Assembly: GCA_013166835.1 (NCBI GenBank)
Contig: JABLTI010000043.1
Span: forward strand, 1 to 23,103
Reading direction: 5' to 3'
Length of the DNA stretch: 23,103 nt
Origin: Promethearchaeati archaeon
GTDB taxonomy: Archaea > Asgardarchaeota > Heimdallarchaeia > JABLTI01
Shown one piece after another: positions 5,935-16,384 of this stretch. Below the pieces are notes generated by a model that was not told the DNA's origin, did not search any database, and saw only the letters and a program-made list of their open reading frames with translations. Every line of letters begins with the position of its first letter. Position 1 is the first letter of the stretch. Made by a program: the position numbers and the translations under genes.

Positions 5935-6098
5935 TGTTTTGTAAATTGGAATAATACTTTTCTCTCATTTCTAAAATCAACAATTAATCTTATTAAAGCA
6001 TGAACTATTTTCTTGACAAAAGAACTTTTAACCTAAAACTTTCGTACTTTAATTAACAATGAAAGTATTAGACTCTCATCTATATTGGTGTGTTACTC

Positions 6099-7337
6099 AT
6101 GGGTAAGCCTAGCAAAAAAGAAACAAATGAACCAGATTTACAGGATTTAGGGGGATTAATTCGAGCAAGCAACATTTTCCTTTCTCAAGCTTCAAGAACA
6201 AGAAAGGCATTTCTTAATCAAAGTGAAGAACTAGTAAAATTATACAATCTTTTAATTGAAACCAAAAAGAAAAGAAATGTTGTTCATGTAACTGGTATGG
6301 GAAGAAGTGGAAGAGCTGTTGAGTTTTTTGCTGAAATGCTAAAGGATTTAGGATTTCATGTATCTGTTATAAGTAGAACTTTAGCTTTACCCGTTTCAGC
6401 TAATGATGTTGTAATTGCTTTTTCAGGCTCTGGGAAAACCATTACTACTGTGGCAAATGTAGGCGTTTGTGTTGATGGTGGAGCAAATGTTGTCATTGTT
6501 ACTCAAAATGAAAAATCCCGTTTGGGTCGTCTTGCAGATATTTGTTTAGTAGTACCCAAATCTAAGAAGCTTCAACGTGAAGAAGAACATCTTGAAATAG
6601 AAACAGACAAAGGTTTTGTCCTTTCATTAAGTCAAATTTCAGAAGAAATGAAGGGCTCATTATCACCAATGGGTACTTTGTTCGAATTATCTGCATTACT
6701 TGTTTCAATTGGATTGACAGGTATGCTACGCAATGATGAAAAACCTGAGAGAGCTTTCCAAAGCACTTTGGACACAGTAATAGATAACGCAGAGAAAGCT
6801 GCACAACAAATTGTGAAAAATAAGAAAACACAAGATGAAATTGTAAGAGTTCTTGATTTATTCTTAGATCTTAGTCCCGCTTCATCTAAGAAAGTTTTCT
6901 GGATCGGCGCTGGTTTAAGTGGTATCATCGCATCGATGCATGCTATGAGATTTCAGCATCTTGGTTACAACATACACCTCCAAGATGATTGGCGTTTTAG
7001 AAAGAAAAACGATATAATTGTTGCTATTAGCGGTAGTGGAAGCACACCATTTACAAATGGTTTCATAATTGAAGCCAAAAAGAAGAAAATGCTTACAGTT
7101 GGTTTCACATCTATTATTGACTCTGAATTTGGTTCTAACATAGAATTTTTGGTCAAAGTTCCAGGACGATTGGATCCTGATAGCTGGTATAATCGAATGT
7201 CTGAATCCAAACCATTCATTGAAACACAATTTGAATTTGCTGTTGCGATTGTTATTGAAAGCATAATAGCTCAACTTGCAGTTCATAAAGGAATTACAGA
7301 ATCTGAAATGAAAGGTCGACATGCAAATATCGAGTAA
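6099..7337 (+). CDS. Tandem SIS-domain protein; internally duplicated 6-phospho-3-hexuloisomerase (PHI/HxlB)-like
   Basis: Two SIS units: GMGRSG / SGSGKT / PMGTLFE and GAGLSG / SGSGST / ETQFE, ending in the PHI-type tail MKGRHANIE. ATG at 6099 follows GGTG at 6087-6090 and is preferred over GTG at 6090. Confidence 0.85.
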   Translation: MGKPSKKETNEPDLQDLGGLIRASNIFLSQASRTRKAFLNQSEELVKLYNLLIETKKKRNVVHVTGMGRSGRAVEFFAEMLKDLGFHVSVISRTLALPVSANDVVIAFSGSGKTITTVANVGVCVDGGANVVIVTQNEKSRLGRLADICLVVPKSKKLQREEEHLEIETDKGFVLSLSQISEEMKGSLSPMGTLFELSALLVSIGLTGMLRNDEKPERAFQSTLDTVIDNAEKAAQQIVKNKKTQDEIVRVLDLFLDLSPASSKKVFWIGAGLSGIIASMHAMRFQHLGYNIHLQDDWRFRKKNDIIVAISGSGSTPFTNGFIIEAKKKKMLTVGFTSIIDSEFGSNIEFLVKVPGRLDPDSWYNRMSESKPFIETQFEFAVAIVIESIIAQLAVHKGITESEMKGRHANIE

Positions 7338-7405
7338 GGAAAGTTTGACTTTACACAAACACTTAATTATTACTGCCATACACAACTTTATCGAGAGTAT
7401 TTACA

Positions 7406-7804
7406 ATGCCCCCTGATCGTGAATTAGATAGTCTTCGTGAAAAACGAAAAAAAGAACTACTTGCACAAAACATAAAGAAAGAACTTGCTCAAAAGAAACA
7501 AGAAGAAGAAACTAACCAATTGAAGCAAAGACAAGTTAGAGCAACTGAAATCGTTAACAAAGCACTGGAACCAGAAGCTGTTGTTTATATGAATTGGCTA
7601 ACTAAATCAAATCCTGCTATTGCTTTGACAATTAAAGATACAATAATTTTACTCATTCAAAAGAAGATGCTACGAAAGCAATTATCCAAAATCGATATTT
7701 TGAAAATAGAAAGAGAATTAACTGGTGTTGATTCAAAGATTCAGGTAAAACGAAGAGGGCAAGAAATAACAGATTTAGATGAAAATTTGAAATCAAAGAA
7801 ATAA
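7406..7804 (+). CDS. PDCD5/TFAR19-family (dsDNA-binding) protein, divergent
   Basis: D-x-E-L-x-x-L-R-x-K-R-x-x-E-L start, Q/E-rich helix, L-E-P-E-A, P-x-x-A...I-x-L-x-Q and the basic K-I-x-V-K-R-R strand. Confidence 0.75.
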   Translation: MPPDRELDSLREKRKKELLAQNIKKELAQKKQEEETNQLKQRQVRATEIVNKALEPEAVVYMNWLTKSNPAIALTIKDTIILLIQKKMLRKQLSKIDILKIERELTGVDSKIQVKRRGQEITDLDENLKSKK

Positions 7805-7823
7805 AAATCCATCATAAATTATG

Positions 7824-8780
7824 TTAGCTTTTCATGACACTTCCATAAATTATTCTTTCAATTTCCTTAATTATTCCTTTTATTGTGGGTGTTGCTGTTC
7901 CTACGCCATCTTGAGATTCAGCTTCAAAAATGAATAAGCCAATATATGCTAATTGTCTTTTCATACTTCGATTTCTAATAGCTTCTATCCATACTAAATG
8001 TGGTTGTGCATTAACCCATCCGTATTCATTTCTTTCTTCTAGGGCTAAGCTAATTTTCCAAAATATTGATGGTAAAGTGTTGTGAATGTTTGTTAACGTT
8101 TCTTTAGCAATATCATCTACTATAAAATTGTAGATACCCTCTCCTCGTTTATTATACATAGCAAAACCTGTACAAGATGGAAAAACTGTGGTAAATTGTT
8201 CAAGTATTTTTTTAATTTCAGCTTTTTGTTCTTCAATAATTTCAAGTTCTTCAGAAGGAAACTTTATTGTATCGTGTATTTTTTGAACCGATTCATCAAC
8301 AAGAACTTTTAATTTCTTGTCCTGTTCCAATCTATCTAATTGTCCCAAATAATGAGAAATTTCTGTGTCTAAAGCATCAATAGATACTTTTCCGTCTCTT
8401 TGTTCAACTTTTTCTTTGACAACAAAAAGCTCCATTGCAAACAAAACTAAATCCCCAGCATCCGCAAGATTAATCTTTAATGCTTTTGCAATTATTGATG
8501 AATTTGCTTCAGCAATTTCTTGAATTGTCATATAACCGAGATCTGTTAATGCTTTATTGATTCCCTCTGGATTATCCCCTTGGAATTGTTCTTGAATGTT
8601 CTTCATATGAGCTTTAAGTGCTGTAACAAATAGGCTTTCAGCAGTTGAAATACTTGAATCCAAGATATTCATAATGGTTGGTGGGAGAATTTCCACTAGT
8701 TCTGGTATAGTATTATAACCTGCATCACGTAATCTTTCTAAATAGATTTTTTTTAATTCAGCATCCTTTTCCTTTGACAT
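7824..8780 (-). CDS. Hypothetical protein: two RadA-N-terminal-like HhH modules plus C-terminal roadblock/LC7-like domain
   Basis: Repeats LRDAGYNTIPEL (aa 17-28) and LTDLGYMTIQEI (aa 78-89). C-terminal IKKILEQF...P...GFAMYNKRG...VG...IKGIIKEIERII matches the roadblock helix-strand-strand...helix pattern. Confidence 0.6.
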   Translation of the reverse strand: MSKEKDAELKKIYLERLRDAGYNTIPELVEILPPTIMNILDSSISTAESLFVTALKAHMKNIQEQFQGDNPEGINKALTDLGYMTIQEIAEANSSIIAKALKINLADAGDLVLFAMELFVVKEKVEQRDGKVSIDALDTEISHYLGQLDRLEQDKKLKVLVDESVQKIHDTIKFPSEELEIIEEQKAEIKKILEQFTTVFPSCTGFAMYNKRGEGIYNFIVDDIAKETLTNIHNTLPSIFWKISLALEERNEYGWVNAQPHLVWIEAIRNRSMKRQLAYIGLFIFEAESQDGVGTATPTIKGIIKEIERIIYGSVMKS

Positions 8781-9034
8781 CGGAAATCCAACCAGCTATA
8801 GTAATAAATGGATGTTTCACCTATAAAATATTAATCGCCTGGATTATTATTCATTTTGCTTATGAAAAAAGAACTAATTTTAATTAATTTGGAAACTAAT
8901 AATACGCGCTAATCTTTATGCCAAAAAAACTTAAAAATTAAAGTAAATAGACAAGTTTTCACTAAGTTAATGAATGTAAGTCATTAAATATTAGTATAAC
9001 AGAATATTTACTGTGGTTTAAGTAGGTAAACTTA

Positions 9035-9805
9035 ATGGATTTTTATACTGACAATTTTTCAAGTATCAACGCCCCTCCGGCAGTAGAAATTAACATTCGA
9101 CCTAATATACTTTATACCGATGAATACTCCTACTTAACAAAAGATGAATTAGAAGTTTTATTTCTATTAGCAACTACAGATATGTTTACTGAAGGCTTAT
9201 CTTCTTTTTCATTTTCTGGCATAAAACGTCAACTTGGAAAACATCAACAAAAAATAACTAAAGCTGTAAATAGACTTCTTTCTAAGAATTTGATTTGCAA
9301 AAATAGTATTGGATATTCCATTTCTTCCAAAGGAACTGCTGTTCTCTCAGAGGTAATTAAGGTACAAAATGCAGTTGATTTGCATCAATCTACAGATGAT
9401 TTCTTACAACAAAGAATTGTCTTCAATGAAAACCTACCTCTTAATGAAATAACTAATTTATTAGTGGGTAAATGGTTTGGATCATTTCGTTATATCTCCC
9501 ATACCGATGGAAAAGATTTGATTGTTCGTTGGCAATTAGTTGACAGTCGTGCTTCTGCAACACTACATGTTTTTGATGACGAAGCAATCTTAAGCATTAT
9601 ACCAGATAAACACGATTCCCAGAAATTCTCGTATGAACAAGCGCTAGATGATCTTTCAAGGTACTTTTTTGAAATTCTCTCTTCATTAGGTGTTAATGCT
9701 GTAATTGAATACGAAGGGTGGAGGAGAAGTTCGCTTTCTGAAATAGATTTCCAACAAAGATTCTCAGCCTGGTTGAGTAGTCATAATAATTTGGTTGAAA
9801 ATTAG
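9035..9805 (+). CDS. Winged helix-turn-helix protein with C-terminal alpha/beta domain (putative regulator)
   Basis: FSFSGIKRQLGKHQQKITKAVNRLLSKNLI...GYSISSKG is a wHTH pattern; the second domain carries L-x-G-K-W-F-G-x-x-R. SD AGGT upstream. Confidence 0.7.
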   Translation: MDFYTDNFSSINAPPAVEINIRPNILYTDEYSYLTKDELEVLFLLATTDMFTEGLSSFSFSGIKRQLGKHQQKITKAVNRLLSKNLICKNSIGYSISSKGTAVLSEVIKVQNAVDLHQSTDDFLQQRIVFNENLPLNEITNLLVGKWFGSFRYISHTDGKDLIVRWQLVDSRASATLHVFDDEAILSIIPDKHDSQKFSYEQALDDLSRYFFEILSSLGVNAVIEYEGWRRSSLSEIDFQQRFSAWLSSHNNLVEN

Positions 9806-9965
9806 CCTAATCTTTTTCAAAAAACAGTAATCACTTATCATTCTTTACTAACAAAAAGTTTATTTTTAAAGAGTTTGTGAAAAATTCTTGCATTACTATT
9901 ACTTAGTCATTTTAAATAATGATATCACATGTAATGTTAAAGAAATTAATTTGAGGTTGAAATTC

Positions 9966-10610
9966 ATGCAACCAACAGATATTGAAAAACAACTAGCAAA
10001 GGGAACAACAACAGTTGGTCTTAAATGTAAAGACTGTGCAATCCTTGTTGCTGACATGAGAGCAAGCATGGGAAACTTAGTTGCTTCGGATCATGCAAAG
10101 AAAGTTCATCAATTGAATGACTTCTCTGCTATTACAATTGCCGGACTAGTTTCTGACGCTCAATATATCATCGATATTATGCAAGCTCAAATTCGTTTAT
10201 TCGAGCTTGATCGAAAACGACGACCAAAGACTTCTATGATTGCTAATCTTGTCAAAAACATGCTTTATGGTCAATATCGTGCATACTTCCCATTCTATGT
10301 TCAACTAATTGTTGGCGGATGGGATCAAAAAGGTCCTCACATATTCTCTTTTGATATGGCAGGTTCATTATCAGAAGATGACTGGTTTTCATCTGGATCG
10401 GGTTCACCAATGGCTTTTGGTGTTCTTGAAGCCATGTATGAAAAAGATATGACAGAAAAAGAAGGACTAAAAGTAGCATTGAAAGCCCTAAAATCGGCCA
10501 TAAAAAGAGACACAGCTACCGGTGACGGTATAAGGGCTGTGGTAATTGATAGTAAAGGATTCAGAGAACTATCAAAAGAAGATATAATTGAACTAGGAGG
10601 AGCCATCTAA
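9966..10610 (+). CDS. psmB: 20S proteasome beta subunit (Ntn-hydrolase), predicted active
   Basis: True start is ATG 9966 after SD GAGGTTGA. 13-aa propeptide ending in G, then T1-T-T-V-G, D17, R19, K33, SGSG and RD-x-x-T-G-D. Confidence 0.96.
   Translation: MQPTDIEKQLAKGTTTVGLKCKDCAILVADMRASMGNLVASDHAKKVHQLNDFSAITIAGLVSDAQYIIDIMQAQIRLFELDRKRRPKTSMIANLVKNMLYGQYRAYFPFYVQLIVGGWDQKGPHIFSFDMAGSLSEDDWFSSGSGSPMAFGVLEAMYEKDMTEKEGLKVALKALKSAIKRDTATGDGIRAVVIDSKGFRELSKEDIIELGGAI
10595..10600 (+). promoter_or_regulatory. Shine-Dalgarno site of psmA embedded in the 3' end of psmB
   Basis: AGGAGG ends 11 nt before ATG 10612; the psmB stop (10610) and psmA start are 1 nt apart. Confidence 0.75.
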
Positions 10611-10611
10611 A

Positions 10612-11319
10612 ATGTTTTCACAACCAAGTCAATTCGGTTATGACAAAGCTACAGTTATCTTCTCTCCTGACGGTAGAATTATACAAGTAGAATATGCTCG
10701 CGAAGCTGTAAAAATGGGCAGTACTGCTGTAGGTATAAAAACAGATCAGTATGTAGTTTTAGCTGGACAAAAACGTACTTTTGAACTCATAGAATCTGCT
10801 GATAAGGTTTTCAAAATCGATGATCACATTGCATCAACATTTTCAGGCTACTCAGCTGATGGACGAGCGTTACTCCAAAGAGCAAGAATCGAAGCACAAA
10901 TAGAAAGAATCACTTATGGTGAAGTGATTGATCCAGAAGTACTTTCTGAAAAAATAGGTGACTATTTACAATCCTTTACACAATACGGCGGTGTACGACC
11001 CTTTGGTATTGCTGTCTTATTTGGTAGTGTCTATGAACGCGAAACTTCTTTGTATTTCATAGATCCTGGTGGGGCTATTTTCAGCTGCCTTGCTACCGCA
11101 ATTGGTTCAAACGAAGCAGCAGCAAAAGAGGTTCTAAAGAAAGGTTACAAGAGGAATCTTACCAAGAAAGCAGCAATTAAATTAGCTCTTGATGCTCTCA
11201 AAGCAGCTGTAGAGGACGATGAAACCGTACTTATCGCTGAGATGGCTATTATTGAGACAAAAGATGGATTAGTCCAAGTTTTAAGTCAAAAAGACATTGA
11301 TGAGATCTTAAAATCATAA
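10612..11319 (+). CDS. psmA: 20S proteasome alpha subunit
   Basis: GYD...FSPDGR-x-x-QVEYAREAV signature, K-V-F-x-IDDHI, TQYGGVRPFG, DP-x-G and A-x-AIG. Confidence 0.96.
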   Translation: MFSQPSQFGYDKATVIFSPDGRIIQVEYAREAVKMGSTAVGIKTDQYVVLAGQKRTFELIESADKVFKIDDHIASTFSGYSADGRALLQRARIEAQIERITYGEVIDPEVLSEKIGDYLQSFTQYGGVRPFGIAVLFGSVYERETSLYFIDPGGAIFSCLATAIGSNEAAAKEVLKKGYKRNLTKKAAIKLALDALKAAVEDDETVLIAEMAIIETKDGLVQVLSQKDIDEILKS

Positions 11320-11330
11320 TCTCATTAATC

Positions 11331-11378
11331 CCTTTTTTTCTTTTATTTTTTTCAATTATCATTTATCGATATTTTTTC
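11331..11378 (+). terminator. Oligo-T tract, probable intrinsic terminator of psmB-psmA
   Basis: CTTTTTTTCTTTTATTTTTTTC begins about 12 nt after the psmA stop, between convergent genes. Confidence 0.6.
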
Positions 11379-12095
11379 TTAGCTTTTGATTTTTCGTAGT
11401 AAATTAGGTAAATCTTTTAGAAAAGGTATGATATAGTTTGGCTTTAATTGTTTGAAAGAATGCTGTACTACTTCTTTGAATTCCCCCAGAATACCAACGC
11501 TTTTAACATTTGCTTTTCTACTTGCAATTATATCAGATGGCATATCCCCAATATACAAACATTCATTTGTAGATAATCCTAATCCTTTGACTCCTCTCAA
11601 AATTCCTTCGGGATGAGGTTTTACATGAACACAATCCTCTCGAGTTATTAAGACATCAAATTCCTTTAATATTGGAATTTGTTCTAATGCTTTATTAATA
11701 ACCTCTCTATTTGCTGATGTAACCAGTCCTAATTTGTAATCACTTGCTAGAAGGTTTAAAGTATCAATTACTCCTGGTTGAGGAACAATAATCATTTTGC
11801 ATTTGTTATACATTATTCCTCCTTTAATCACAAATTTCATTCTTTGAAAGAAATTTAATCCCGGAATATTAGAAATTTTGGCAATCATTTGTGGTATATA
11901 TAATGGATTTTGTTTCTCTGGTGCTGTAAGGAGTTTTTGAGCTGTGTTAAAAAGTGCATCAAATACTACTTCTCTTTTAATATCTGGTTTTACTTTCTTC
12001 AATGCATAAAGATAAGACCAACCCACTCGAGCCATTAAGGACGAAATAACTCCATCGAAGTCTAATAGTAATCCTTTAACAGTGTGAGTAGTCAT
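11379..12095 (-). CDS. HAD-IA family hydrolase (phosphoglycolate phosphatase-like)
   Basis: DFDGV motif I, GLVTS motif II, KPHPEG motif III and YIGD-x-x-x-D motif IV. Confidence 0.9.
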   Translation of the reverse strand: MTTHTVKGLLLDFDGVISSLMARVGWSYLYALKKVKPDIKREVVFDALFNTAQKLLTAPEKQNPLYIPQMIAKISNIPGLNFFQRMKFVIKGGIMYNKCKMIIVPQPGVIDTLNLLASDYKLGLVTSANREVINKALEQIPILKEFDVLITREDCVHVKPHPEGILRGVKGLGLSTNECLYIGDMPSDIIASRKANVKSVGILGEFKEVVQHSFKQLKPNYIIPFLKDLPNLLRKIKS

Positions 12096-12277: not shown

Positions 12278-13135
12278 ATGTCTGAACACGAGAAAACACT
12301 TACGGAATACATTCATGAACTCAAATCAGAAGATGCAAACGTTCGAATTGAAGCTGCTGTAGCTCTTGGAGATTGGGGAAATGATCGAGCGGTCACTCCA
12401 CTTATAGAGGCACTTTTACATCCAGATGAAAATTTAAGGCGTACCTCTGCTAGAGCACTAAAAGAAATTTCCAATAGGCGTTCAATTGAACCATTAATTA
12501 CTGTCCTTCTAGATGATTCTTCTGCAGAAGTAAGAGCAGAAGCAGCATTTGCTTTGGGATATTTTACCAGATTTGATTTTGAAATTGATGATTTAATCTT
12601 AGGATTAAAGGATGAGCATTATTTAGTTCGTCAGAACGTAGCTTTTGCTTTAGGAAAAATTAAACGACGAAAAGCAGTGAAATCCTTAATTGATATTCTG
12701 AAAACTGATGATAATTACCATGTAAGAGAAATGGCTGCTTGGGCTTTGGGTGAAATCAAAGATAAACGTGCTACTGAAGTATTAATCTCTGCGTTAAATG
12801 ATGATCGATTATCTGTTAGGAAAAACGTTGCGTATGCATTAGGTCGGATACAAGATAGTGCGGCAGCTAATGCATTAAAGTTACAAATGATAAAGGAAGG
12901 CGAATCCAAGGATGCTTCTTGGGCACTCTCTAAAATTCTAAAGAAAAAGGACGCAATATCTGCCTTGAAAGATGCCTACAAGAAGATGCGAAAAGAGAAT
13001 TTTATTAATGATTGCATTGAAATCTGTAGAACTCTCTATAATTTAGAGAGTAAATCTGCAGAGAAATTCCTTAAAGAAATGTTAGAAGATGAAGAACTCT
13101 CACAATATTATGATGCACTAAAAACTGTGTATTAG
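12278..13135 (+). CDS. HEAT-repeat (PBS lyase HEAT-like) protein
   Basis: Six clear ~31-aa repeats (VRIEAAVALG, LRRTSARALK, VRAEAAFALG, VRQNVAFALG, VREMAAWALG, VRKNVAYALG) plus one degenerate repeat. Confidence 0.92.
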   Translation: MSEHEKTLTEYIHELKSEDANVRIEAAVALGDWGNDRAVTPLIEALLHPDENLRRTSARALKEISNRRSIEPLITVLLDDSSAEVRAEAAFALGYFTRFDFEIDDLILGLKDEHYLVRQNVAFALGKIKRRKAVKSLIDILKTDDNYHVREMAAWALGEIKDKRATEVLISALNDDRLSVRKNVAYALGRIQDSAAANALKLQMIKEGESKDASWALSKILKKKDAISALKDAYKKMRKENFINDCIEICRTLYNLESKSAEKFLKEMLEDEELSQYYDALKTVY

Positions 13136-13985: not shown

Positions 13986-14768
13986 TCATCGTTTAAATAA
14001 CCATTCTTCATCTTTAAATAATTCATGAGCAATTCTATTTGCATTTTCATGTTCCTCATCTGAAATCTTTTCATGAATTAATTCAATATCCAAAACAGAG
14101 CTAAGACCATTAATCATAGCATTTCTGATTTTCTCAAATGATGGGGCAACACCTAATTCATCCTCTAAGCTTGAAACTCGCTCTTTTGCAGAGGATATCA
14201 TTTTCGCTTTGAATTTCTCATCAGGAACAACTAATAATGAAAACATTTTTTCTACATTTACTTTCCTAAGAATTGTTCCGTGCTGCAAAATCACTCCACT
14301 CTTTCTTGTAAGAGCACTCCCTGAGATTTTCTTGCCGTTACTCTTTAAGTTAATATCATTTATTGGTTTGAATTCTGCATCTATCCCTAATTCTGTTAAG
14401 CCAAGTACAACCCCTCCACAAATTTTCTCATATATCTTTGGTATATCTCGAGGTAATCTTGGATCATCGTCAAGACAATTCACTGAATACGTTAATTCCC
14501 CTTCAAAATCGTGATATACTGCCCCCCCACCTGTTATCCTTCTAATATAATTCACTTTTTTCTCTTTACAATTCTTAATATTCACAACTTTATTCATTGA
14601 TTGGAAATAACCAATTGAGACAGCAGAAGGTTTCCAACGATAAAGCCTAATAGTATTTTTAGCTTCGCGTGCTGCCACAGCTTCTTGAATCGCTTTATCT
14701 AATCCCATGTTGTAATAACAATCCGCAGCATTTTCTACCCAAATCAATCGCCATTTTTCTTCGGACAT
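13986..14768 (-). CDS. lplA: Lipoate-protein ligase A family, stand-alone catalytic (N-terminal) domain
   Basis: NM-x-x-D, RLY-x-W-x-P-x-A-V-S-I-G-Y-F-Q, RRITGGGAVYHD, NDI, GKKISGSA and QHGT; 260 aa with no C-terminal accessory domain. Confidence 0.92.
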   Translation of the reverse strand: MSEEKWRLIWVENAADCYYNMGLDKAIQEAVAAREAKNTIRLYRWKPSAVSIGYFQSMNKVVNIKNCKEKKVNYIRRITGGGAVYHDFEGELTYSVNCLDDDPRLPRDIPKIYEKICGGVVLGLTELGIDAEFKPINDINLKSNGKKISGSALTRKSGVILQHGTILRKVNVEKMFSLLVVPDEKFKAKMISSAKERVSSLEDELGVAPSFEKIRNAMINGLSSVLDIELIHEKISDEEHENANRIAHELFKDEEWLFKR

Positions 14769-14840
14769 AAAGTTACATTCCTTGACTGAAATATGAAAAC
14801 ATTGAACTTTGAAGATAAAATATTATCCTCTAGCTCAAAT

Positions 14841-15287
14841 TTAGAATTGAAAACCCCAGAAATACCACACGTATAGAATAGTAGATCCAATACTTAACAA
14901 AGTACCAACAACAGCAAGTAGGATTGACTGTCTGATTTTGGGACTGGTACTACCAAGTTTTTTCGCATTCATTGCATAAATTATTGTTAAAATAAGGAAT
15001 ATTATACCTGTCGGACCACAAAAAGTTAACCAAGCAAATGACCAAGCTAACTTTAATTTTGCATCAGCTTGTTGCTGCTGTGTAGCTGCTCCTATAACTT
15101 GAATAATTTGTTGTCTAGGAGTACCAACATACTGCTGGGTTGATGGTTGACTATAACTTGGCTGTTGTGGTTGTGCATAGGAGCTTTTCTTTACAGTAAC
15201 ATCACTTCCGCAAAAACCACAGAATTGTACTTCTTTTTCTAGAATTGCTCCACAATTTGGGCAAATTATGAATTTTTCTTCAGACAA
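14841..15287 (-). CDS. Zinc-ribbon membrane protein (Zn ribbon, Q/P-rich linker, two hydrophobic segments; CD225/DUF4190-like)
   Basis: TTG start; CPNCG-x8-FCGFCG; YAQPQQPSYSQPSTQQY linker; two C-terminal hydrophobic segments separated by a basic loop. Confidence 0.75.
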   Translation of the reverse strand: MSEEKFIICPNCGAILEKEVQFCGFCGSDVTVKKSSYAQPQQPSYSQPSTQQYVGTPRQQIIQVIGAATQQQQADAKLKLAWSFAWLTFCGPTGIIFLILTIIYAMNAKKLGSTSPKIRQSILLAVVGTLLSIGSTILYVWYFWGFQF

Positions 15288-15388
15288 TTTTTTATCCCCT
15301 GAGTAAGGAATGTTTTTCCCATTGAGTTTCTATCATAGATATGGGTGCTTTATATATCTTGCTTTTCAAATTTAAAAAATGATTTTCT

Positions 15389-16384
15389 CTAAATGGAATC
15401 AATAAGAGATTTTCTTACAACAGCAATATCCTCTTCAGTAAGTTCACTTGGAAAATTATACATATCTTTTCCAGGGGATTCATTGTAAAAGGGTCTATTA
15501 CAATGAGGACACCCGCTAGTTCTGAATGGTTTTCCATAAGAGATAATTTTTTCTAGTTCCTCTTTCTTAATACCAAAATCAAGAATCTGGTCTCTTTGTT
15601 CAACCTTCTTACTAAAGGTAATTTTTGAAAAGGATGTTTTTCCTGCATTGATTAAATATCGAGCCAATTGTATTCTTCTATAGCTTTCAATATCTGGTTG
15701 TGGATGTTTTTCCAATGTTGTTCCCTTTACTGGGGTAAATGCAAATAACCCAACAGTAATATTTTGATCATAGAATTTCTGTAAAAATTGGATTGCTTCT
15801 TTCTCAGTTTCCCCTAGTCCAATAATCAAGTGTGTGCTAACAAATCTTTTACCAAAAATTTCCAACGCATCTTGTATTGATTTTTCCATCATTTCCCAAG
15901 AAATATCTGATCCTCTCTTTTTACCTTTGATTTCGTTATAAATTTCAGGAGTAGCACAATCAAATGATATTCCAACTCTTGAAACTCCAAAATTCTTCAT
16001 TTTCAAAAATATTTCTTTTGTCGTTGGATAACAACAAACAGTTAGCGGTGTTGATATTTTGCTTTCAGAGAATTGACCAATTATCTCCAATAAATCTTCA
16101 GTGGAATTTTCATATCTAATTGTTTGAATACATATTCGTTTCAATCTTGTTTCTCGAGTAATTATCCCCTCAATAATTTCATCAAGATCATACGTTGGCC
16201 ACAATACTCTCGAGAGTCCATCTCTTCTACCTTCACTTTCTTTTGCTTGAGGACAAAAACTGCAATTTGACAAACAATTAGTATTAGAATACATTAGCAA
16301 ATAAGCTGTGGTTGGTTTAGCTTGCAAAAGTATTTTTTCCAAACCAAGTACTGCTGCTGTTCCTATTGAAGCTCTTATTTTCAA
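15389..16384 (-). CDS. lipS2: Radical SAM protein, archaeal lipoyl synthase subunit LipS2-type
   Basis: CLSNCSFC (CX3CX2C), PTTAYL, LSRV-x-WP, HLIIGLGET, LFAFTP and the C-terminal TSGCPHCNRP matching the TXGCPXC(N/D)RP motif described for Thermococcus LipS2; two genes from lplA. TTG start with GAGGT SD. Confidence 0.85.
   Translation of the reverse strand: MKIRASIGTAAVLGLEKILLQAKPTTAYLLMYSNTNCLSNCSFCPQAKESEGRRDGLSRVLWPTYDLDEIIEGIITRETRLKRICIQTIRYENSTEDLLEIIGQFSESKISTPLTVCCYPTTKEIFLKMKNFGVSRVGISFDCATPEIYNEIKGKKRGSDISWEMMEKSIQDALEIFGKRFVSTHLIIGLGETEKEAIQFLQKFYDQNITVGLFAFTPVKGTTLEKHPQPDIESYRRIQLARYLINAGKTSFSKITFSKKVEQRDQILDFGIKKEELEKIISYGKPFRTSGCPHCNRPFYNESPGKDMYNFPSELTEEDIAVVRKSLIDSI

Follow-up and report, generated by a model that had tools for sequence, protein, structure and literature searches.

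The window analysed here, a 23,103-nt stretch of DNA from an archaeon of the class Heimdallarchaeia, carries two adjacent genes for the beta and alpha subunits of a 20S proteasome, preceded by a gene for a putative winged-helix protein. The relevant features are:

8976-8992, + strand: AGTCA+TATA element (GTAAGTCATTAAATATT) 5' of the winged-helix gene, rank 10 of 3182 in the matrix search described below
9035-9805, + strand: candidate regulator of 256 aa, with a putative N-terminal MarR-like winged helix and alpha/beta C-terminal domain
9902-9918, + strand: predicted psmBA promoter, AGTCA directly 5' of the TATA-like TTTAAATA (9911-9918), rank 1 of 3182
9953-9959, + strand: GAGGTTG, SD-like sequence of psmB, invariant across nine aligned loci of this genome's family
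9966-10610, + strand: psmB, 20S beta subunit, 214 aa; propeptide 9966-10004, Thr1 codon at 10005
10595-10600, + strand: AGGAGG, SD-like site for psmA within psmB, 11 nt 5' of the psmA ATG
10612-11319, + strand: psmA, 20S alpha subunit, 235 aa, assigned to a 'pair-type', probably paralogous lineage
11333-11339 and 11346-11352, + strand: two T7 tracts, probably forming a U-tract terminator of archaeal type, ahead of a convergent HAD gene that ends at 11379

Beta contains Thr1, Asp17, Lys33 and a 13-aa propeptide, all as read in the initial annotation; the Gly-Thr1 junction and the SGSGS and RDTATG motifs are present as well. It scores above the cut-off of TIGR03634 (227.1 vs 224) and below that of the bacterial TIGR03690 (94 vs 191.9). 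Alpha exceeds the cut-offs of PRK03996 (262 vs 219) and of the Proteasome_A_N domain, PF10584 (43 vs 27.7), and stays below that of the bacterial TIGR03691 (20.6 vs 139). It also falls short of the TIGR03633 equivalog cut-off (248.5 vs 287.35), which is in line with a divergent paralog. Residues Y10, D11, P19, Y28 and K65 are invariant in 17 pair-type sequences; we take the first four to be the Tyr-Asp-Pro-Tyr cluster of the gate and K65 to be the lysine of the activator pocket. Pair-type alphas further share an invariant Gly52, a two-residue-shorter loop and an IIQ-type motif, and the short loop occurs in unrelated alphas too. The best PDB matches of both chains are archaeal 20S structures (3h4p, 1pma, 1j2q/6he5, 9s34).

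In comparison with archaeal PsmA and PsmB, the catalytic triad, the propeptide, the presumed gate cluster and pocket lysine, and the RP loop are retained. The differences are that the two genes are adjacent, outside the exosome superoperon and not next to aCPSF1, that in this alpha YDK replaces YDR and the loop ahead of the pocket lysine is two residues shorter, and that the PAN of this genome ends in FFV.

Bacterial prcBA genes also stand in beta-then-alpha order. Since the order is the same, acquisition of the operon from actinobacteria or Nitrospirae was considered. Such a transfer can practically be dismissed: as already supposed in the initial annotation, both sequences look archaeal, with HMM scores far over those of the bacterial models and top PDB entries of archaeal-type names followed by eukaryotic subunits; their nearest groups in trees built without bacterial sequences are other Asgard subunits. 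Unlike prcBA, psmBA is archaeal in sequence and resides in a genome with PAN and PAC2. The common order, suited to assembly from alpha-beta heterodimers, is most likely convergent.

Most named relatives at 80-99% identity carry the label Heimdallarchaeota. Two 86%-identical alphas come from entries labelled Bathyarchaeia (L047) and Thorarchaeota (P0037), which are probably mislabelled; L047 also shows the same gene order.

The number and context of 20S genes were determined in the whole genome (3.56 Mb, 84.75% complete). Only two PF00227 matches exist, psmB and psmA. The exosome superoperon is assembled (SBDS, Rrp4, Rrp41, Rrp42 and L37ae, identified by eye in the ORF list), with no alpha gene in the 7.3 kb upstream of SBDS, and no beta gene precedes aCPSF1. 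According to the available part of PMC3095777, these are the usual archaeal contexts of alpha and beta, respectively; psmBA lies apart from both, and its description as a self-contained pair is supported. Elsewhere, the genome encodes a single PAN, a Cdc48 and three PAC2 proteins.

The same arrangement is standard in the class. A same-strand tandem of 20S genes is present in 58 of 61 Heimdallarchaeia genomes; among the families compared (f1-f7, f1 being that of this genome) it occurs in 11/12 genomes of f1, 18/18 of f2, 21/22 of f3, 5/5 of f4, 1/1 of f5, 0/1 of f6 and 2/2 of f7. Two of the three exceptions are located at the end of a contig; the third comes from a genome with 83% completeness. 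All tandems of the class typed by sequence are beta then alpha. This order was found in none of 29 genomes of other Asgard classes (19 typed by sequence, 10 judged by coordinates only), which include one alpha-then-beta (G069) and one alpha-alpha tandem (G076). While 3-6 matches to 20S genes were counted in all 92 Asgard genomes of other classes, Heimdallarchaeia mostly have 2-3. Some named loci duplicate genomes of the set, and related genomes are not independent.

At 84.75% completeness this assembly alone leaves room for a missed 20S gene, and the alpha is under the equivalog cut-off (248 vs 287), so a second, specialised particle beside a canonical one had to be weighed. It is very improbable: the SBDS and aCPSF1 loci are assembled without 20S genes, none of the 12 f1 genomes has a second full alpha or beta (a third match in two of them is one split alpha and one weak fragment), both single-contig f2 genomes have the pair and no further 20S genes, and Hodarchaeales have one beta. 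We consider it very likely that psmBA is the sole 20S core operon of this archaeon, in the arrangement standard for its lineage. The initial annotation had proposed a paralogous second 20S particle bearing on the onset of subunit diversification, together with a count of gene copies and contexts as a check. The proposal falls on that count, because these are the only alpha and beta genes found in the genome and their adjacency is the class standard; as to diversification, the class has fewer 20S genes, not more. Judged against the 3-6 subunit genes of other Asgard genomes, the Heimdallarchaeia lineage is reduced in 20S genes rather than diversifying.

Several arrangements of 20S genes were seen in passing. 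In f2, psmA is directly followed by a gene for a metallo-beta-lactamase-like protein of about 343 aa (L062:5900-6931, L063:6310-7341, L073:6564-7598), echoing the usual link of beta with aCPSF1. G076 has two canonical-type alphas in tandem (L133:2414-4022) and a third alpha at SBDS. Genomes of f16 have a pair-type alpha and a related beta, adjacent as alpha then beta in G069 (L122:170-1707) and, in G079 (L120), encoded on opposite strands some 6 kb from each other; a PAN match at E<=1e-110 was obtained in neither genome.

To which alpha lineage does the gene belong? The alpha homologs of f3 and f7 are named Hodarchaeales. An alpha lies directly before SBDS in f3 (22/22) and f7 (2/2) and in no genome of f1, f2, f4, f5 and f6; SBDS itself was found in 60 of 61 class genomes. 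Both alpha types occur together in f7 (2/2) and f3 (21/22), with a single beta in Hodarchaeales. Quick trees, with SH-aLRT as the only support, were constructed from 58 of 77 alphas and 58 of 67 betas after near-duplicates were dropped; pair-type alphas are on long branches. In the alpha tree, 15 pair-type alphas of the class and those of f16 and f20 are separated by a branch with support of 97. The second alphas of f12 and f21 fall on the same side and all 22 SBDS alphas on the opposite one. With other archaeal and eukaryote-like sequences added, as suggested in the initial annotation, the split has a support of 92. The AU test rejects relocation, in which sole alphas group with the f3 SBDS alpha (p=1.2e-7), as well as duplication of alpha inside f3 (p=5e-5); monophyly of the class pair-type alphas is merely not rejected (p=0.068). 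Pair betas and f16 form one group (support 98), and the G012 beta labelled CPSF is a pair beta adjoining a different MBL gene.

These data bear on the possibility that ordinary archaeal psmA and psmB were brought together by rearrangement, with no paralogy involved. Identity to Methanobrevibacter alpha is 33-37% for pair-type alphas in genomes that retain the canonical alpha, which are the more diverged, and 40-50% for those that are the sole alpha; the f1 alpha, at about 50%, is as similar to it as SBDS alphas are, and long-branch attraction could join pair-type alphas. Such a rearrangement is nevertheless improbable given the coexistence of both types in f7 and f3, the AU rejection of sole alphas grouping with the f3 SBDS alpha, and the derived characters of the pair type (Gly52, shorter loop, IIQ-type motif). 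The alpha of the window neither precedes SBDS nor groups with SBDS alphas. It is probably an old paralog of the SBDS-linked alpha, and the canonical alpha would have been lost in this and other families. The paralogy claimed in the initial annotation probably holds for the history of alpha, whose counterpart coexists with it in Hodarchaeales, and not for a second particle. Trees and contexts are most simply explained by a class ancestor in which the one beta became linked to an old second alpha.

A relation of pair-type alphas to eukaryotic alpha6 was also considered. For a Hodarchaeales pair-type alpha from f7 (G051, L074:2338-2589), the first 84 residues, a region picked after the likeness was noticed, match PSMA1 best in the PDB (39.5 bits, gap-free). 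This was not repeated by the window alpha or an f3 alpha, nor by the C-terminal part or full-length profiles, and orthology with alpha6 (PSMA1) is very doubtful. In a tree without any alpha6 sequence, eukaryotic rows that are presumably alpha2-5-like, typed by characteristic motifs, fall on the canonical side.

The initial annotation described a 1-nt gap between the genes, an SD inside psmB and an oligo-T stretch read as a terminator, and all three sequence features are present: the psmB stop TAA ends at 10610 and is followed by a single A and the psmA ATG from 10612, AGGAGG lies at 10595-10600, and the two T7 tracts follow psmA. AGGAGG occurs 5' of 39 of 2381 genes of this genome (1.6%) vs 0.16% of random coding 16-mers, and runs of at least seven T after 226 of 2381 stops (9.5%) vs 49 of 20000 coding windows. 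Relative to coding DNA, both signals are thus enriched approximately 10-40 times at gene boundaries. No 16S gene is present in this assembly; in three of five relatives searched, including one genome of the same genus, the 16S 3' end is GATCACCTCC(T), the matching anti-SD. No hairpin terminator was found by a sigma-70/hairpin scan, which was uninformative overall.

The psmB-psmA gap is +1 nt in 8/8 f1 loci, 1-4 nt in five f2 loci, 6 nt in f5, 11-12 nt in f3, 7-16 nt in f4 and 56-66 nt in f7. An SD-like sequence (GGAGG or similar) is kept at the junction. It is situated within psmB in f1 and f2, in differing reading frames, and the internal GGAGG of f1 doubles as Gly-Gly codons. Translational coupling of psmB and psmA is plausible in f1. 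It is not a property of the whole class, because the gaps are 11-16 nt in most f3 and f4 loci and 56-66 nt in f7. As far as the accessible text of PMC10666635 goes, a native +1-nt pair is coupled in Haloferax, coupling is gone by about 22 nt, and termination-reinitiation pairs are enriched for heteromeric complexes. As a candidate pair of this kind, psmBA resembles the known ones in its +1-nt spacing and upstream SD and differs in that the spacing is longer in four other families of the class.

Metatranscriptome contigs from four runs cover psmB and psmA, with one of 872 nt spanning their junction; the downstream HAD gene has no contig. Contig starts at 9943 and 9950 are a weak hint only, and contigs prove neither transcript nor strand.

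Further, we examined sequences upstream of psmB. Nine aligned f1 regions display an invariant TAGTCATTTTA ahead of a TATA-like box, and the same string was found again before PAN of a relative. AGTCA directly 5' of an A/T run precedes psmB in six families. A matrix trained on 19 psmB promoters of other genomes was applied to 3182 genes of this genome. psmB ranked 1, two PAC2 genes 6 and 7, PAN 9 and the winged-helix gene 10; the presence of three proteasome helpers among the nine top ranks other than psmB has a hypergeometric p near 1e-6. The other five genes down to rank 10, unconnected with the proteasome, comprise a PAS kinase, FtsY, a C_GCAxxG protein, a TPR protein and an unknown; a trypsin-like protease ranks 12. 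Windows scoring at least 12 number 10 in sense vs 5 in antisense orientation. The element is not present at the third PAC2, thermosome, DnaK, Cdc48, SBDS and TFB promoters of this genome.

Class-wide, 21 of 24 psmB loci score at least 12, 19 of these being training sites; in two of the three others the best site (23.3) sits at the winged-helix gene heading the unit. Scores of at least 11 were obtained for 8 of 28 PAC2 loci from four families, four of them f1 orthologs, and for 0/28 in antisense (two of 30 loci, without upstream sequence, were dropped). At the same threshold no site was detected at 16 SBDS alphas, 24 psmA starts and 80 subunit genes of other Asgard classes. Only one of 27 other PAN loci has the motif, one PAN window (G048) being misplaced. 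A strict pattern had 17 matches in three other f1 genomes: three at psmB, four at PAC2, one each at PAN, the winged-helix gene and a DnaJ-like gene, and seven unrelated or within ORFs. In five non-f1 genomes it had 10 matches, three of them at psmB promoters (training sites) and none at PAC2 or PAN. A loose pattern was rarer than its reverse in 12/12 genomes, with 30 sampled matches mostly within ORFs, and looser patterns were no commoner than reversed controls.

It is likely that AGTCA is a functional element shared by psmBA and helper genes. It is class-wide at psmBA and scattered at PAC2, and a regulon is best supported in f1. Because an element of the psmB type ranks high also at PAC2, PAN and winged-helix genes, the motif distribution suggests a dedicated, proteasome-specific regulon in this archaeon. 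A general heat-shock element was rejected, as thermosome, DnaK and Cdc48 rank 231 to 2004, and so was a generic promoter element, AGTCA being only 29th of 815 pentamers before T-rich runs.

Some minor observations concern these promoters. The DnaJ-like gene carrying AGTCA-TATA (G005, L271:280-1395) was recognised by eye, and its ortholog in this genome scores 5.7. A perfect inverted repeat surrounds the element upstream of psmB in f5 (L287), and two f4 psmB promoters (L010 and L016) carry AGTCA twice in tandem, at a distance of 11 nt. Among pentamers before T-rich runs in intergenic regions of this genome, CCGAT is the most enriched (4.5-fold; 11 sense, 6 antisense), possibly another promoter element. 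PAN of this genome (C50:13736-14950) ends in FFV; the penultimate residue is Phe, not Tyr, in 15 of 24 class PANs and Tyr in two of five f1 genomes. Covariation of the PAN tail with alpha type was rejected, since the two f7 genomes, which retain the SBDS alpha, also have Phe and no clean pattern emerges.

Two candidate factors for AGTCA are the linked winged-helix protein and a second TFB. The winged-helix protein (9035-9805) has no Pfam or NCBIfam match. Its model (pLDDT 79) best matches 3nrv of the MarR family (Z 7.2, below the confidence level of 8, rmsd 1.3, 74 residues); Foldseek returned MarR-type winged helices at E >0.001, and Atlas neighbours at 0.92-0.94 carry MarR or HTH assignments, in most cases for a minority of their members. 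The gene is found in 59 of 61 class genomes, usually in a single copy, and within 6 kb of psmB in 48 of the 57 in which both were found (f1 12/12, f2 17/17, f3 18/20, f5 1/1, f4 0/5, f7 0/2). The f4 and f7 families keep the AGTCA motif though the gene is unlinked there. Six of 29 other Asgard genomes have it as well, one as a weak partial match, and there it sits either on a different contig from the 20S genes or over 19 kb away from them. The AGTCA+TATA element at the winged-helix gene scores at least 11 in 7/11 f1 loci. An autoregulated factor would fit, because the gene is linked to psmB and carries its own copy of the element; that this protein reads AGTCA is a tentative proposal, for which we see roughly one chance in three.

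Winged-helix dimers usually bind palindromes, and the AGTCA element is not consistently palindromic. It lies immediately 5' of TATA, at the position of the BRE, in a genome with two TFB genes, and might instead be a strong or variant TFB recognition element, possibly of the second TFB, or a by-product of strong promoters. In Sulfolobus, a TFB paralog has a regulon of its own, according to the available part of bioRxiv 10.64898/2026.09.06.749720. On the other hand, AGTCA differs from the BRE given in the available part of PMC10746257, G/C(A/T)AAA, the element is rare (10 genes score at least 12) and not present at thermosome, DnaK, Cdc48, SBDS and TFB promoters, and a copy lies 5' of the linked winged-helix gene, which would be expected under autoregulation. 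We hold the TFB explanation to be a serious possibility, somewhat short of even odds.

Proteasome genes are under common control in eukaryotes, by Rpn4/PACE in yeast and Nrf1/ARE in animals. The resemblance of these systems and of archaeal Phr to the proposed regulon lies in a cis-element common to proteasome or assembly-chaperone genes, and no homology to Rpn4 or Nrf1 is claimed. In the available part of PMC10746257, the Pyrococcus Phr heat-shock regulon includes PbaA, 20S genes are not heat-induced in Pyrococcus, and Phr binds a palindrome, unlike the AGTCA element, which is not a steady one and is located at psmBA, not at thermosome or DnaK.

From gene content, gene order, conserved residues, the phylogenetic split and the distribution of the motif, we infer co-transcription, coupling, assembly and regulation in the following form. 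One transcript would start at the AGTCA-TATA promoter and end at the U-tract. Ribosomes finishing beta would reinitiate on alpha over the 1-nt gap, aided by the internal SD. Near-equal amounts of beta and alpha would yield an alpha7beta7beta7alpha7 barrel of homo-rings with the Thr1 active site, possibly assembled through alpha-beta heterodimers, a route open to archaeal subunits as well according to the available part of PMC4541365. The 20S core would be fed by the single PAN and by Cdc48. The class ancestor would have placed its only beta beside an old second alpha paralog, and Hodarchaeales would have retained the SBDS-linked alpha, with loss of it in this and other families. Core and helper genes (PAC2, PAN in some genomes, the winged-helix gene) are probably co-induced as a small proteasome regulon. 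We assign this reading as a whole, a housekeeping 20S operon with a paralog alpha and a shared promoter element, a probability of about 80%. A bolder extension, with an autoregulated winged-helix factor acting on AGTCA of psmBA, PAC2 and PAN as a counterpart of Rpn4/Nrf1 and with mixed alpha rings on a single beta in Hodarchaeales, appears unlikely.

The enzyme is thus an ordinary archaeal proteasome core and its gene order a class trait. Hodarchaeales are recovered as sister to eukaryotes in the accessible part of PMC10307638, a placement disputed in that of PMC12222021. Of the Asgard genomes searched, those of the class proposed nearest to eukaryotes have the fewest 20S genes, one beta with one or two alphas; this speaks against the eukaryotic 7+7 expansion having begun there by accumulation. 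The two-alpha, one-beta system of Hodarchaeales offers a setting for testing hetero-ring formation, and mixed alpha rings, if they exist, would be a living model of the first step to hetero-alpha rings. AGTCA gives a defined DNA site with two candidate factors. If real, the regulon would be proteasome-specific in an archaeon, of which no description was found in the literature searched. The psmBA order and AGTCA motif of Asgard archaea likewise appear nowhere in that literature, including the available parts of PMC8665760, PMC13247210 and PMC10307638; supplementary gene tables could list copy numbers.

Other genes of the window were also inspected. Positions 6090-8780 encode a tandem-SIS HxlB-like isomerase, a PDCD5-like protein and an unassigned 318-aa protein with a weak match to the RadA N-terminus, in an order that is the same in two f1 relatives. 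A HEAT-repeat protein (12278-13135) near the operon, without the promoter element, is also present in two f1 relatives. At 13986-16384, a lipoate-protein ligase and a LipS2-family lipoyl synthase (over cut-off) have a zinc-ribbon membrane protein between them.
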